Positions 31,959 to 36,166 are shown, numbered from the stretch's first letter. The stretch: 64,000 nucleotides of DNA from Candidatus Gottesmanbacteria bacterium (GCA_963714095.1 OY970230.1:1023907-1087906); one strand, 5' to 3'. Made by a program: numbers and translations. Notes: generated by a model not told the origin, from the sequence alone.

Positions 31959-32085
31959 GGGTATATTATACCGCGAAGTTTACCTGAGCGAGAGAAGCGG
32001 TAAAAAAGAACTCGCGATAAGGCCGAGTGACGCCACAACAATAACTACTTTCCAAAATGTTTCGTGTTTCCGAAAAAAGTTCATA

Positions 32086-33273
32086 TTATTTTGCTATTTT
32101 AACAGCTTTTCGGCCGACTTGAAATATCCCTCCGACTTTTGGTGAAACCGGTTCTTTTGGATTGGTTATTTTAACACCATTTATACTGACGGAACCCTGC
32201 GAAATTTGTCGTCGTGCTTCAGAATTGCTTGAGGCAAGATTCAGTGCTGTTAAATAGTCGATTGTACCAGCTGTAGATGGTAGGGTTGAAATTGATACGG
32301 TAGGCAATTTTGCCTGCGTGAGATCGCCGGTCTGGAACCGCGTGCCGAAATCTTTTTGGGCGGCATCAGCACTTGCTGAGCTATGAAGCTCAGCGACCAT
32401 CCGGTGAGCAAGTTCGATTTTAACGGTCATCGGATTCTCTTTTGCCGTGAGGCGTTTTTGCACGGCATCTACTTCTTCCATACTCGCGTTTGTTGCCAGC
32501 GTAAAATATTGCACGATAAGTTCATCCCGCAGGGACATGACTTTCCCGAACATATCTCCCGGACCGTCAGTAAGCCATATAGCATTATTCCAGGTTTTAC
32601 TCATTTTGCGGCCGTCGGTTCCCTCCAAAAATCCGTTGGCGATAATAAAGGATTCTTTTTTCCTCAAATCTTTTTGCAGAGTCCGGCCGGCCTGCATATT
32701 AAACGTCTGGTCCGTGCCGCCCAGCTGGATATCCGTATTCATAAACCAGCTGTCAAACCCCTGCATCACAGGGTAGAGAACTTCATGGAGTCCAACCTTT
32801 TTACCTTCCGTAAGACGTTTTTTGATAAGTTCCCGCCCGACAAAATCCCCGGCGGAAAAATGCTGGCAAAGTTTTACGATATCCGCAAATTTTAAATCCT
32901 TCAGCCATTCACTGTTGAAACGGACGTGTATTTTGGAAAAATCCAGCACCTTTTCCGCCTGTTTTTTGTAGGTTTCAAAATTATTTTTAATTTGTTCGCT
33001 TGTTAAGACCGGCCGTTCGCTGTCTTTATCGGATGTATCCCCGATAAGCGCCGTAAAATCACCGATAAGGAAGGTCACGTTATGGCCGAGTCTAGCAAAT
33101 GCGTTGAGTTTTCGCAGCGGCACTGCGTGCCCGATGTGGATTTGGGTGGCCGTGGGATCAATTCCGAGATATACATTGAGCTTTTTCCCACTCGCCAGGA
33201 GCGCCCGCAGTTTTTCTTTATTCGGGATGATATTCTCGACACCTCTGGTTAATAATTCCTCGATTTCGTCCAT
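32086..33273 (-). CDS. tyrS: Tyrosine--tRNA ligase
   Basis: The HIGH motif sits in TATQIHIGHAVP and the KMSKS motif is KMSKTWN. A C-terminal S4-like domain is present. Confidence 0.9.
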   Translation of the reverse strand: MDEIEELLTRGVENIIPNKEKLRALLASGKKLNVYLGIDPTATQIHIGHAVPLRKLNAFARLGHNVTFLIGDFTALIGDTSDKDSERPVLTSEQIKNNFETYKKQAEKVLDFSKIHVRFNSEWLKDLKFADIVKLCQHFSAGDFVGRELIKKRLTEGKKVGLHEVLYPVMQGFDSWFMNTDIQLGGTDQTFNMQAGRTLQKDLRKKESFIIANGFLEGTDGRKMSKTWNNAIWLTDGPGDMFGKVMSLRDELIVQYFTLATNASMEEVDAVQKRLTAKENPMTVKIELAHRMVAELHSSASADAAQKDFGTRFQTGDLTQAKLPTVSISTLPSTAGTIDYLTALNLASSNSEARRQISQGSVSINGVKITNPKEPVSPKVGGIFQVGRKAVKIAK

Positions 33274-33285
33274 AAATTTATTTTA

Positions 33286-33981
33286 TCACACATTTCGTGT
33301 CATTTCGCGAACGGTTGCATGCGCAAGAATATCCATTGTGTCATGGACAGTAATTCCCTGGATATTCGGAAATAGTATTTGTAAATCCGTACACGCTAAC
33401 AAAATATCCTGAATGTTTTTTCGAAGAAACGATTCGGCAATTACAGTGAGGCCTTTTTTCGTTTTTTCGACATCTTTTTGATTGAGAATATTGTGAATTG
33501 CGAGATTAATAGATTGTTGTTCATCATTGGTCGGGAGAATGGTTTTGATACCAAAACTTCGTAATTTTTTTGCATGTAATTGTTGTTTTCGGGATATGTC
33601 CGTTCCGATAAGCCCGATAGACGTAACATCGTTCGTTTTCAGCGACAAAGCCGTTTCGTCGAGAATGCTGAGTACCGGAATAGAGACTGCACGTCGTATG
33701 TCATGAATAAATACATGAAGCGTATTGCAGGGCATGACAAGAAAATCCGCTCCGGCATTTTCCAATAGTTTAGCCGCTGAAATAAGGAAAGGGAGAAATT
33801 TATTCATACTTTCCCCTTTCAATATCAGATCATTCTCGATTTGAACGGGGATTGGTGTGTTCCACATTAATATCGCAGGCCTCGTGCGTTGTTTTTGTGC
33901 AGCACAGAGTTCAACTATTTTTAGCTGAAATGCCGCGGTCGTTTCCGGACCGAATCCACCGATAATTCCCACAGTTTTCAT
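33286..33981 (-). CDS. Asp/Glu/hydantoin racemase family protein
   Basis: The N-terminus reads MKTVGIIGGFGPETT, and a PCNTLH (Cys) motif and a second Cys motif (ACTDL) are present. Confidence 0.7.
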   Translation of the reverse strand: MKTVGIIGGFGPETTAAFQLKIVELCAAQKQRTRPAILMWNTPIPVQIENDLILKGESMNKFLPFLISAAKLLENAGADFLVMPCNTLHVFIHDIRRAVSIPVLSILDETALSLKTNDVTSIGLIGTDISRKQQLHAKKLRSFGIKTILPTNDEQQSINLAIHNILNQKDVEKTKKGLTVIAESFLRKNIQDILLACTDLQILFPNIQGITVHDTMDILAHATVREMTRNV

Positions 33982-33985
33982 ATTG

Positions 33986-34948
33986 TTATTGCTCTGTAAG
34001 CTTAACCTCCTGAATAAATTCGTCGACATTCGGTAAATTTGGACTCGTCAGGCGCAGTTTTTCTACGTGTTTCTCTATAGAAACAAGATCGCCGAATGCA
34101 GTTTTAAATCCTTCATCTACGAGCGCAGAAAGCTCTTCTCGGGTTTTCGTAAAACCTAAGGTAAGCAAATCAGTAAGCAGCGGCTCCCGTTTTCCGTTTA
34201 ACTGTCTGGGCATGTAATGAGGCCCGGGGCACCGGTCAGTAAATAGGTCCAGGTGATCACCGTGCACAACAAGTTCCGGTAATTGATTTTCAACGATAGG
34301 CATGAGCTTTTTCCGTACTGATTGAAACGTCTCTTCCGATGTAGAAAAGCAATTGATTGTTATCGCCTTTGTTGGTGCAGGGAAAAACTTTTCCGGATCC
34401 CATGCGTCATGCCAACCGAAAATATGATGGGGCGTATAGATTTTTGCGCTTTCTTTATTTCCCCGCTTTTCTGCGGCGTTAAATGCTTTTTCCCACATTG
34501 GTGCGAGGGTCGGATCATGAAGACTCAGCAATTCGTCGGAAAGGCGTGATAGAAGGCTGATTGCGTTATTTGTTATCGGTTTATCGACATCGAGAAACCA
34601 GGAAATAGATGGGTGAAAGATTTCTTCAAATTTTTGAATAAAGAAAACACCCTGCCGGACCGTATCTTCTCCATCAGTGTGAGCGATGCCGTTTGCATGT
34701 TCCGATAAGTGCAATGGTACGAATACCCGAAGTTCAGGTGACACTGTTTTTTTCTCGGCGATTGCCTCGGCCAGCGAGAACGCAGGTGCAAATCCCGCCA
34801 AAAACCGCGCCGGCAGACCCAGGTCACTTATTCCAAAAACGACATTGATACCGACACTATTTTGTGCCCATGACGAATTTTCGATCTGAGATAATGACCG
34901 ACGTAGTCCTGTTTTGAATTCTGGTTGTAAGGCCTCAATTTTATTCAT
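33986..34948 (-). CDS. Hypothetical protein (320 aa)
   Basis: This long ORF fills the gap between tRNA-Tyr and the racemase on the same strand. No motif was recognised. Confidence 0.5.
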   Translation of the reverse strand: MNKIEALQPEFKTGLRRSLSQIENSSWAQNSVGINVVFGISDLGLPARFLAGFAPAFSLAEAIAEKKTVSPELRVFVPLHLSEHANGIAHTDGEDTVRQGVFFIQKFEEIFHPSISWFLDVDKPITNNAISLLSRLSDELLSLHDPTLAPMWEKAFNAAEKRGNKESAKIYTPHHIFGWHDAWDPEKFFPAPTKAITINCFSTSEETFQSVRKKLMPIVENQLPELVVHGDHLDLFTDRCPGPHYMPRQLNGKREPLLTDLLTLGFTKTREELSALVDEGFKTAFGDLVSIEKHVEKLRLTSPNLPNVDEFIQEVKLTEQ

Positions 34949-34963
34949 AGTTTTATACCTTTG

Positions 34964-35048
34964 TGCTGAGGCCAGGATTTGAACCTGGGTAGCCCGTCAG
35001 GGCGACAGATTTACAGTCTGTTGCGATTGACCGCTCCGCCATCTCAGC
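34964..35048 (-). tRNA. tRNA-Tyr (anticodon GTA), type II with long variable arm
   Basis: A cloverleaf can be read by eye: the anticodon arm ACAGA-CTGTAAA-TCTGT gives GUA, the variable arm is CGCCCTGACGGGCTA, and the T arm is CCAGG-TTCAAAT-CCTGG. There is one A-C mismatch at the base of the acceptor stem. Confidence 0.8.
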
Positions 35049-35101: not shown

Positions 35102-35356
35102 TTAGTACGAATTCATTCCCCAGACTCTTTTGTCCCTAAAATCATCACATTGGAATGCTGCGGTAAAATCTGCTAAACAACGACCCTCTATACTTCTTTT
35201 TGGTTGTGTTTCATCTCCTATAAATTTTTCCTCCACCGCGCAAAATTTAGGTATATGCGTTTCAATATCATTACCGTGATTTTTCCATCCCTCTATTTTT
35301 TTAAGGGCTAAACATTTTCCGTCTGAAAAGTGTTCACATCGGTTCATACTATTCAC
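35102..35356 (-). CDS. Small Cys-containing hypothetical protein (84 aa)
   Basis: The ORF lies on the same strand 11 nt downstream of the preceding small ORF. It has 5 cysteines and no recognisable motif. Confidence 0.35.
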   Translation of the reverse strand: MNSMNRCEHFSDGKCLALKKIEGWKNHGNDIETHIPKFCAVEEKFIGDETQPKRSIEGRCLADFTAAFQCDDFRDKRVWGMNSY

Positions 35357-35367
35357 CTCCTTTCAAA

Positions 35368-35766
35368 TTATTTTTTACTTATCTCACCTCCAGAAAGTAA
35401 AATCACTGAACCTGCGGCCATACCTGCACAATCTTCCGCGAAACGCCGACGGGCATTTTGATCCGGCGGTATTTGGTTTAGCTCTGTTGATAACCTATCT
35501 CTAAATTCATTTAGAACCCTTTCTTCTTCAGCCGAATTTATTGCGCCGTCGACGTGGTCGGAGCAAACGAGAGAACCAGGGACGCCTGTAAAATTACAAT
35601 CTTCATGGATATGAAATTCGTTTGTTAATTCAGTAGTTATAGATTGTCGTTGCTGCGTTTCCTGACTACTATTGTTTGTGCGTACGGCATCCACAGCCGA
35701 TCCCACGGTTGTCAAAAGTCCACCGATCATTAATACGTTGCCTAATGTTTCTCGAATGTTTTTCAT
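35368..35766 (-). CDS. Small secreted/membrane-anchored hypothetical protein
   Basis: The N-terminus has a hydrophobic segment, LMIGGLLTTVGSA. An SD-like GAAGGTGA lies 7 nt upstream of the ATG. The protein has 4 cysteines. Confidence 0.45.
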   Translation of the reverse strand: MKNIRETLGNVLMIGGLLTTVGSAVDAVRTNNSSQETQQRQSITTELTNEFHIHEDCNFTGVPGSLVCSDHVDGAINSAEEERVLNEFRDRLSTELNQIPPDQNARRRFAEDCAGMAAGSVILLSGGEISKK

Positions 35767-35787: not shown

Positions 35788-35859
35788 GTGCTAGGGGAGG
35801 ACTCGAACCTCTCCCGCGGATCGGTATTTTCGATCGGCGGTTCCATCAGTACCCCAGCA
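35788..35859 (-). ncRNA. tRNA-like element (T-arm + acceptor-like 3' half, non-canonical 5' half)
   Basis: A GGAGAGG-TTCGAGT-CCTCCCC T-arm is followed by CCTAGCA, which can pair with a 5' TGCTGGG (7 bp). No canonical D or anticodon arm could be drawn. An internal hairpin CGCCGATCG-AAAATAC-CGATCCGCG is present. Confidence 0.35.
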
Positions 35860-35868
35860 TTTTCCACT

Positions 35869-36133
35869 AAAAAACCTCGCCTCTATCCCCGAATTTGATC
35901 AGGGACAAGGGCGAGGTCAGTTAGGCCACGCGGTACCACCTTGTTTTGCCAAAGAAAAACCGACACGAGGTCGGTTCTACCTTAGCCTCAACGAACTTTG
36001 CTTTTGGCAACATTCGTTTCACGCTGTTACGGGCGTACCCGGTTCATGCTCCAGAGTGTATTTCGGTCGCTTATCGTTTTTTTAATAAGCGATCTACTAG
36101 GGTCTCCTTCAACGCATTTCTATTCAATTGTTC
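35869..36133 (-). promoter_or_regulatory. T-box riboswitch leader (T-box core + intrinsic terminator), candidate Tyr specifier
   Basis: On the minus strand the sequence AAGGUGGUACCGCG matches the T-box core AGGGUGGNACCGCG at 13 of 14 positions (+35929..35942). About 12 nt downstream is a terminator hairpin CCTCGCCC...GGCGAGG followed by U6 (+35869..35916). A stem III-like hairpin AACCGAC-CTCGT-GTCGGTT precedes the core. The 5' region has a K-turn-like UGAAGGAGA motif and a GAA-A-UAC-A candidate specifier near +36056..36063. Confidence 0.65.
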
Positions 36134-36137
36134 ACCT

Positions 36138-36166
36138 ATTATACCACAATTTGCCTGTTTTTGCAA
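36138..36166 (-). promoter_or_regulatory. Sigma70-like promoter (-35 TTGCAA, 17-nt spacer, -10 TATAAT) driving the T-box leader
   Basis: On the minus strand the sequence reads TTGCAAaaacaggcaaattgtggTATAAT. The predicted TSS is about 7 nt upstream of the start of the leader element. Confidence 0.55.

Follow-up and report, generated by a model that had tools for sequence, protein, structure and literature searches.

The stretch of DNA analysed here (the window, 64,000 nucleotides of Candidatus Gottesmanbacteria) carries on its minus strand, at 35869-36166, a promoter and a tyrosine-type (UAC) T-box leader endowed with an antiterminator/terminator switch. Behind the leader, on the same strand, lie a tRNA-like element (TL, 35789..35858), two small open reading frames (orf132, 35368..35766, and orf84, 35102..35346), a tRNA-Tyr(GUA) gene (34964..35048), orf320 (33986..34948), a gene for an amino-acid racemase of the Asp/Glu type (33286..33981) and tyrS (32086..33273), identified by Pfam and coding for a tyrosyl-tRNA synthetase (TyrRS) of 395 aa. 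From the terminator to recG all genes run in one direction, with intergenic gaps of 1-53 nt, and the string of two small open reading frames, tRNA-Tyr(GUA), a 320-aa hypothetical protein, racemase and tyrS is as given in the preliminary description of this DNA. Genes related to the amino acid of the specifier are found downstream of the leader, namely tRNA-Tyr, the predicted TyrRS-fold paralog encoded by orf320 and tyrS itself. The interval that the preliminary description had assigned to the riboswitch does contain the leader, but its last 70 nt (35858..35789) belong to the separate tRNA-like element and not to the leader.

The promoter is a sigma-70-like element, TTGCAA-17-(TG)GTATAAT (36138..36166, minus strand), with 10/12 matches and a TG extension. 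It is the top sense-strand promoter-like site in the 4.4 kb scanned (31.9-36.3 kb), a stretch in which 8 such sites were found against 7.5 expected, so that any single site is not above chance. Among relatives, however, this site is kept in both position and sequence, and equivalent sites with 10-11/12 matches are located upstream of the leader in the homologous loci L055, L044, L032 and L082. The leader proper (35869..36129, minus strand) is a T-box of reduced form, with a Stem I devoid of the distal platform and with no Stem II, as indicated by RF00230, nhmmer and the fold z-score. Its Stem I (36048..36115; RF00230 alignment and fold) is composed of a K-turn, UGA/AGGAG (36111..36104), an S-turn, AGUA (36098..36095), both placed by the RF00230 alignment, a short distal hairpin and the specifier loop GAA-A-UAC-A. 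The specifier codon UAC (Tyr; 36058..36060) complements the anticodon GUA, and its context, GAA-A-UAC-A-CUCU, is in the same register as the Rfam consensus GAA-a-uuc-a-CCcu. In other words, Stem I shows a basal K-turn (UGA/GGA), a specifier loop delimited by AGUA and GAA, and a purine after the codon.

The place of Stem II is occupied by a 5-nt linker only, followed by a IIA/B-like hairpin, CCGGGUACGCCCGU (36029..36042), which aligns to the IIA/B element of RF00230, is kept despite the absent Stem II and is nearly invariant across the family of related leaders described below. Further downstream are a family-specific extra hairpin (35991..36017; fold and family alignment), whose outer stem covaries around UGUUGCCAAAAGCAAAG, and Stem III (35948..35986; RF00230 alignment and fold), a two-tier structure with an internal hairpin and a U-run. 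The T-box core, AAGGUGGUACCGCG (35929..35942; RF00230 alignment), presents a UGGU bulge at 35938..35935. When folded in isolation, the 3' domain (35947..35903) adopts as its minimum free energy structure a canonical antiterminator with a 7-nt UGGUACC bulge, at -11.3 kcal/mol. The intrinsic terminator (35869..35916), located 12 nt 3' of the core, consists of a 19-bp hairpin, CCUCGCC...GGCGAGG (35916..35875), followed by U6 (35874..35869), with a folding energy of -32.5 kcal/mol. The two structures are mutually exclusive, as the CCUUG segment (35910..35906) is shared by the 5' strand of the terminator and the 3' strand of the antiterminator. Moreover, the UGGU bulge complements the A73-CCA end of the tRNA-Tyr(GUA) encoded at 34964-35048, which has an A as discriminator; this is the match with the NCCA end that the preliminary description had proposed as a check. 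All the sequence features named in that description, that is, the canonical TTGCAA-17-TATAAT promoter, the K-turn-like motif near the 5' end, the candidate Tyr specifier, the stem III-like hairpin upstream of the core, the conserved core and the strong terminator about 12 nt downstream of it, were indeed found at their places on the minus strand.

A search with the T-box covariance model RF00230, also proposed beforehand, returned a full-length match at 36121..35904 on the minus strand, with 59.3 bits and an E-value of 3e-12 in a local search, or 2.2e-10 when the whole 64-kb window was searched; in this E-value mode it is the only T-box of the window. The match is significant, though below the Rfam gathering score (93 bits), at which no T-box is listed in the window, and the shortfall is due to the missing distal platform of Stem I and the missing Stem II. 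Comparison of the window leader with the leaders of relatives by nhmmer gave a best E-value of 3e-45, and the z-score of the whole-leader fold is -5.8. With the signature motifs present and in the correct order, the leader is confirmed, at the level of sequence, as a genuine T-box riboswitch, and its specificity for tyrosine is supported by the Rfam register, by the invariance of UAC in 31 leaders and by the GUA anticodon of the tRNA.

A scan for TyrRS relatives yielded 32 loci of Candidatus Gottesmanbacteria, Levybacteria and unclassified Patescibacteria, in which the backbone is conserved, with pbp1a on one strand and tyrS-orf34-recG on the other. In most of these genomes pbp1a and tyrS are 60-200 nt apart and the leader is absent. 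A strict regular expression for the T-box core gave no match in these first 32 loci, and nhmmer detected leader homologs adjoining pbp1a in 8 of them, with E-values from 3e-45 to 2e-6. The family was then enlarged by a metagenome scan with a leader-specific DNA pattern, in which the codon was left free, and by three contigs retrieved through orf320 homologs. It now comprises 31 distinct homologous leaders from Candidatus Gottesmanbacteria and relatives, nearly all adjoining a divergent pbp1a and lying upstream of tyrS, and GAA-N-UAC is found in each of them (31/31). Full-length members exceed the Rfam gathering score (L044 and L091, 106.7 bits; L100, 102.3; L055, 102.2; L011, 94.3) and display, besides IIA/B, both the AGAGA bulge and the GGUUGGUG-A distal loop, as well as a Stem II whose S-turn is GAA/AGUA. 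Since these members pass the gathering score with all domains, the family is a bona fide T-box family, confined to Candidatus Gottesmanbacteria and its close relatives in the CPR, and the window copy is a reduced derivative of it.

The extent of this reduction is considerable. About 39 RF00230 consensus positions of the distal Stem I are replaced by 8 nt in the window leader, whose distal Stem I is about 34 nt shorter than that of relatives. The AG bulge and the distal loop of Stem I (the double T-loop that makes the elbow contact), which the preliminary description expected a fold of Stem I to reveal, are absent from the window leader, and Stem II is missing as well, according to both the RF00230 and the family alignment. 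Within the family, motif search or inspection revealed the distal platform motif in 26 leaders out of 31 (L076, whose 5' end is cut, among them). Four distinct leaders (L007, L008, L039 and L104) have the platform and no Stem II, and five (the window, L047, L059, L081 and L095) are devoid of both; the Rfam scores of these doubly reduced leaders are 56-63 bits, with the exception of L047, which is truncated on its 5' side by a contig edge.

Without platform and Stem II the reduced form may bind tRNA poorly or not at all, and the question arises whether the window leader is a decaying relic of a full T-box, no longer responsive to tRNA and acting as a leaky constitutive attenuator, or inert. The loss of both tRNA-holding modules, contrary to known requirements, would fit such a relic, as would the Rfam score of just 59 bits and the fact that tyrS has its own promoter. 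Several observations, however, make it a rather unlikely explanation. The doubly reduced architecture is found in five distinct genomes, and the sequences of its short Stem I hairpin differ between genomes while the pairing is kept, with double changes in 4 of the 5 pairs among the four complete sequences. In addition, UAC is invariably followed by A in all five short-form leaders (by C or U in the long forms), and promoter, core, antiterminator and terminator are retained in every one of them. A dead attenuator, that is, a terminator of -32 kcal/mol ahead of tRNA-Tyr, would furthermore be costly and should erode. Because it recurs in five genomes with compensatory changes, the doubly reduced form appears to be maintained and not accidental, and we infer that it is functional and tRNA-responsive. 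A conserved terminator-type T-box without either element falls outside the described classes.

The second peculiarity of the locus is what stands behind the terminator. The tRNA-Tyr(GUA) gene of the window (class II, discriminator A, CCA not encoded; Rfam 54.6 bits and ARAGORN) is separated from the terminator by 820 nt and two open reading frames. Of the 31 leaders, 17 are followed on the same strand by a tRNA-Tyr(GUA) gene, with Rfam tRNA scores of 54-64 bits, at variable distances from the U-run: the gene starts 3-12 nt past it in L078, L044, L055, L049, L082 and the more divergent L076, 65-132 nt past it in L036, L032, L011, L005, L047, L081 and L095, and 268-820 nt past it in L059, L033, L013 and the window. 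Considering the informative loci, a tRNA-like element and/or a tRNA-Tyr gene follows the terminator in 24 of 28. By comparison, no tRNA gene lies within -1.5/+2.5 kb of any of 40 further leaders picked up by the leader-specific DNA pattern; a T-box core is recognisable in 35 of them, with specifiers for Phe, Val, Ser, Met, Thr, Ile or Tyr. The contrast between 17 leaders with tRNA-Tyr and none of 40 controls indicates that the association of a Tyr T-box with tRNA-Tyr is specific to this family and recurrent. That a Tyr T-box preceding a tRNA-Tyr gene would be atypical is thereby borne out, the arrangement being the hallmark of a lineage-specific family.

Whether the T-box actually governs the tRNA gene is a separate matter. 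It is conceivable that only the proximal protein genes are under its control, while tRNA-Tyr, orf320, the racemase gene and tyrS are transcribed from unrecognised internal promoters, the vicinity of T-box and tRNA-Tyr resulting incidentally from a variable island prone to recombination. Little is known of CPR promoters, the gap between pbp1a and tyrS is a region of variable cargo, and tyrS clearly has an independent promoter-like motif, all of which would agree with this explanation. It is nonetheless unlikely in view of the six distinct leaders in which tRNA-Tyr begins 3-12 nt past the U-run: such a spacing leaves no room for a promoter before the tRNA gene, which is reachable solely through the leader. 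In L055 and L044 the sole sense-strand promoter-like site of the scanned stretch lies upstream of the leader, and an independent promoter for the abutting tRNA-Tyr, sought within the leaders of L055, L044 and L078, was not found. Likewise, scans for sigma-70-like and extended -10 sites found no promoter-like site upstream of the tRNA-Tyr of the window, and the match between Tyr leader and Tyr tRNA, recurring in 17 leaders and in 0/40 controls, speaks against a mere by-product.

The element that immediately follows the terminator in the window deserves separate consideration. TL is defined by its fold, by homology to tRNA-Tyr, by covariation and by a covariance model of its own (82 bits). It folds into a 7-bp acceptor stem, a canonical T-arm, GGUUCGAGUCC, and a central hairpin, with an A as discriminator; fold and alignment reveal neither a D-arm nor a GUA anticodon. 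Acceptor stem and T-arm, and in longer versions the D-arm too, align with the genuine tRNA-Tyr genes of relatives, and the inner part of the central hairpin varies between genomes with its pairing preserved. The covariance model, built from eight versions and used to search 646 kb, matched 11 distinct leaders with 34-96 bits, always 0-13 nt past the T-box U-run, and found no TL elsewhere in the 646 kb; genuine tRNA-Tyr genes score 19-33 bits only. In L047, L081 and L095, T-box, TL and tRNA-Tyr follow one another in tandem.

Different identities were considered for this element. A real tRNA was discarded, given that TL is not called by ARAGORN and has no RF00005 match even at E<=10, and a ligand of the specifier was discarded because GUA is absent. 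A remnant of the att site of a mobile element inserted at tRNA-Tyr was also rejected, as TL has a complete acceptor stem and is unlike the 3' end of the tRNA-Tyr of the window; nor is it the scar of an integration, being single-copy in the window and without flanking direct repeats. Most economically, TL is read as a duplicated tRNA-Tyr which has lost its decoding parts and would have been kept as a handle for RNase P and 3' processing, parting the leader from the downstream RNA.

As far as tyrS is concerned, its inclusion in the T-box regulon, as proposed in the preliminary description, stands only in part. The gene starts 2595 nt past the leader U-run, has no Shine-Dalgarno sequence and is preceded, 6 nt before its ATG, by an extended -10 promoter-like motif, TGATAAAAT (33280..33288, minus strand), detected by motif scan; a leaderless gene transcribed from a promoter of its own has this arrangement. 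Of 44 distinct regions upstream of tyrS, 38 contain a TGnTAnnnT motif that terminates 6-16 nt short of the ATG, against a background of 1.9%, and the tyrS extended -10 motif is also found in Levybacteria, in which the T-box is absent and the gap to pbp1a is short. Many relatives with co-directional upstream cargo have AAGGAG between this motif and the tyrS ATG, an arrangement also compatible with translation of a longer transcript. In the stretch between the leader promoter and 33288, no other sigma-70-like site or plausible extended -10 was found, the single further TGnTAnnnT match being a poor one inside the racemase gene; these scans for promoters and terminators rely on plain matching to a consensus and may miss CPR promoters inside coding regions. 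No sense-strand terminator was detected between leader and tyrS in the window, nor between tRNA-Tyr and tyrS in L032, L055 and L082, so that read-through can reach tyrS. Consequently, the part of the proposal that stands is possible read-through, whereas dependence does not: tyrS would not depend on the leader, and the leader-TyrRS output link in the window may be weak. The predicted obligate targets of the leader are TL, tRNA-Tyr and the cargo genes, with tyrS as a putative target by read-through.

The stretch between leader and tyrS is variable across loci, and includes methyltransferases, a PLP enzyme of the Cys/Met type, a class I/II aminotransferase, a MetE-like protein, a cupin, racemases and small Cys-rich relatives of orf84. 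In the window, orf132 (an ORF call) is an orphan small protein with a hydrophobic N-terminus and the Shine-Dalgarno sequence GAAGGUGA, for which no Pfam or NCBIfam match and no homolog in related loci were found. orf84 (81 aa from its ATG; an ORF call) is a small Cys-rich protein with a strong Shine-Dalgarno sequence and weak homologs at the same operon position in L100 and L007. The racemase is assigned through PF01177 (1e-32) and TIGR00035 (157 bits). Pfam, NCBIfam and PDB sequence searches yielded nothing useful for orf132, orf84 and orf320. The last of these represents a narrow family of 26 homologs, without Pfam or NCBIfam match; those at 43-77% identity (L101, L104) occupy the same place in the leader...racemase-tyrS operon, and those at 39% identity are located elsewhere. 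The AlphaFold model of orf320 (pLDDT 93, pTM 0.90) resembles the catalytic domains of TyrRS and TrpRS, with a Foldseek E-value of 3e-4 and probability 1.0, although no similarity to the TyrRS of the window is detectable in sequence (hhalign probability 0.2%). As for membership in the class Ic aminoacyl-tRNA synthetases (aaRS), the combination of PF00579 and class I signatures was not found in orf320, HIGH and KMSKS having been judged by eye. The protein that had been described as a plain hypothetical is thus, according to its predicted model, a TyrRS-fold paralog, encoded between tRNA-Tyr and tyrS.

Taken together, these observations favour a reading which we consider likely, in which the leader is a Tyr T-box attenuator at which uncharged tRNA-Tyr gives read-through into TL, the small open reading frames, tRNA-Tyr, orf320, the racemase gene and tyrS. 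Transcription would start at the conserved TTGCAA-17-TGGTATAAT promoter. Uncharged tRNA-Tyr(GUA) would pair through its anticodon with the UAC specifier of Stem I and through its 3' ACCA with the UGGU bulge. This binding would stabilise the antiterminator, which is weak (about -11 kcal/mol), in its competition with a strong terminator (about -32 kcal/mol). Read-through would then proceed through TL, the two small open reading frames, the tRNA-Tyr gene, the TyrRS-fold paralog and the racemase, in this order, and the polymerase would go on into tyrS, no terminator lying between, tyrS presumably being served by its own promoter as well. TL and tRNA-Tyr would probably be excised by RNase P and 3' processing, whereby the leader would be severed from the message. 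As the uncharged fraction rises, the sensed tRNA and its partners would be raised together. Since read-through enters the tRNA-Tyr operon, the riboswitch most likely controls the synthesis of its own ligand, together with proteins related to Tyr and tRNA-Tyr. tRNA-dependent read-through, co-transcription and RNase P processing are presumed steps of this scheme, and all the conclusions rest on computation.

A more elaborate, self-referential circuit may also be envisaged. The Tyr T-box would be the main or sole transcription route of its own ligand tRNA-Tyr, in a positive feedback balanced by TyrRS, and the excised, CCA-bearing TL would be a non-decoding mimic of the acceptor arm, which could exert feedback in trans, either on the discriminator domain of the T-box or on TyrRS, and thereby offset the lost platform and Stem II. 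Such a circuit is distinctly improbable. Finally, a chance resemblance, with the leader being no T-box whatsoever, could appeal to the absence of any T-box report at the Rfam gathering threshold, but it is effectively refuted already by an E-value of 2e-10 over the whole window, by clear homology to leaders above the gathering score and by signature motifs all present in proper order.

T-boxes are the textbook example of RNA sensing tRNA for the control of amino-acid genes. With the attenuator as read here, the first target of the leader would be the gene of the sensed tRNA, which would add a ligand feedback loop and join tRNA-Tyr with a TyrRS-like paralog and with TyrRS into a single unit. 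Annotation pipelines that consider just the next protein-coding gene would overlook such a tRNA target. In addition, a naturally maintained transcriptional T-box without platform or Stem II would challenge the rules for kinetically controlled T-boxes, and the doubly reduced leader may serve, as a minimal scaffold found in nature, for studies of mechanism and for engineering. With this locus, a T-box family is also placed in CPR bacteria, in which gene regulation is almost unstudied, together with a tRNA-derived element and an uncharacterised family of proteins with a TyrRS fold. A literature search found no paper tying T-boxes to CPR/Patescibacteria, two classic comparative surveys being outside its reach, and no T-box followed by a tRNA gene or a tRNA-like element; an earlier description may thus exist.

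Among known systems, the transcriptional tyrS T-box of Firmicutes (Bacillus subtilis tyrS leader; RF00230) shares with the window leader the K-turn, the S-turn specifier loop with UAC, IIA/B and Stem III, as well as the 14-nt core with its UGGN bulge, a competing terminator, the Tyr specificity and a tyrS gene downstream. Unlike the Bacillus subtilis tyrS leader, the window leader has neither the distal double T-loop of Stem I nor Stem II, and carries an extra hairpin before Stem III; its host belongs to the CPR, TL and a tRNA-Tyr gene are the first elements downstream, and tyrS has its own promoter. The distal double T-loop is typical of transcriptional T-boxes, albeit not universal, and Stem II with the IIA/B pseudoknot is absent from the Gly class. 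Glycine (glyQS) T-boxes are, like the window leader, transcriptional and naturally without Stem II. glyQS leaders also lack IIA/B and have kept a long Stem I with the elbow-binding platform (PMC7583486), whereas the window leader keeps IIA/B and loses the platform. Actinobacterial ileS T-boxes, with an intermediate or 'ultrashort' Stem I (Sherwood et al. 2015, as cited in PMC7583486), resemble the window leader in having a truncated Stem I and no platform. They are, however, translational, and their tRNA binding needs Stem II and the pseudoknot, while the window leader has an intrinsic terminator and no Stem II.

With regard to TL, mixed tRNA-mRNA operons exist, for example the thrU-tyrU-glyT-thrT-tufB operon of E. 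coli, and minihelices of acceptor stem and T-arm are substrates of RNase P. The window shares with such operons a tRNA and an mRNA that would be on one transcript, and with tRNA-like processing signals a unit of acceptor stem and T-arm within a longer transcript, suited to RNase P. Unlike those signals, TL is located 0-13 nt past a riboswitch terminator, is derived from the ligand tRNA and has lost the anticodon, its cleavage being a prediction. Non-synthetases with a class Ic aaRS fold include the cyclodipeptide synthases and the PvcA/IsnA isonitrile synthases, and orf320 has no sequence-level membership in either group. In conclusion, the sensing principle is that of the classical T-box, and what is new is the wiring, with the gene of the ligand as target, the tRNA-derived element and a transcriptional architecture that is doubly reduced.

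An anticodon-less element derived from tRNA-Tyr, whose acceptor stem, T-arm and central hairpin are present without a D-arm, lies at 35789-35858 on the minus strand of the window. This tRNA-like element is located 0-13 nt 3′ of the U-run of the T-box terminator and is kept in 11 distinct leaders, namely those of the window and of the related loci L004, L007, L008, L039, L047, L074, L081, L095, L101 and L104. The element receives no call from ARAGORN or Rfam; that of L104 is wrongly called tRNA-Gly(ccc) by ARAGORN. By-eye inspection of 10 variants shows that in 8 of them the loop of the central hairpin (about 35823-35829 in the window) includes a Tyr codon, as AAUAC in six and UUUAUC in two, while L074 and L104 carry a GAGAA loop instead. 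These loop codons probably represent only two independent events, so their recurrence may not be significant.

The leader itself is a mosaic. Its 5′ half is nearest to L007 and L008, while the antiterminator and terminator (35869-35942) are unlike their L007 counterparts and about 88% identical to those of L011 and L032, a distribution of similarity that suggests recombination between leaders. In addition, a terminator scan flagged, within Stem III (35955-35975, minus strand), a GC-rich hairpin and the U-run that comes after it, as well as corresponding hairpins in relatives (L078, 12719-12737; L044, 464-483; L082, 2560-2577). Since this U-run is able to pair with upstream A's, it may be a simple extension of Stem III. 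Another possibility is that hairpin and U-run together could act as a pause site before the antiterminator decision.

Further downstream, 38 of 44 distinct tyrS upstream regions (L001-L032 and others) carry an extended -10-like motif (TGnTAnnnT) whose end is 6-16 nt 5′ of the ATG; in the window it occupies 33280-33288 on the minus strand. In Levybacteria and in the window the motif is placed at -6 with no SD, an arrangement which, as judged from sequence, implies that the tyrS mRNA would be leaderless in these cases. In six Levybacteria loci (L016, L018, L020, L021, L022, L031), a repeated, partly palindromic CTAGCTACTAGTGGCTAGTTGCTAGCGACTAG-like sequence is found directly 5′ of the -10 motif, about 15-50 nt 5′ of tyrS; these repeats may constitute an operator. 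A motif similar to the extended -10, TGTTAAAAT (32104-32096), precedes by 11 nt the ATG of orf34, a hydrophobic ORF of 34 aa that lies in the tyrS-recG interval (31980-32084, minus strand). As orf34 is kept in most related loci with 39-88% identity in tblastn searches, it is probably a genuine gene for a small membrane protein.

The divergent pbp1a-tyrS gap is a hotspot for variable cargo genes (L002, L004, L006, L010, L011, L030, L053, L055 and others), including methyltransferases, PLP enzymes, a MetE-like protein, an aminotransferase, a cupin, racemases and a nucleotidyltransferase/HEPN-like pair, and such cargo occurs both with and without a T-box. Several of the MAG contigs compared (L002, L004, L011, L015, L017, L019, L022, L023, L026, L028, L032) are titled "uncultured Gammaproteobacteria bacterium". 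These contigs show clear Gottesmanbacteria/Levybacteria synteny and a TyrRS identity of 56-78%, and it is probable that the source records label them with the wrong taxon.
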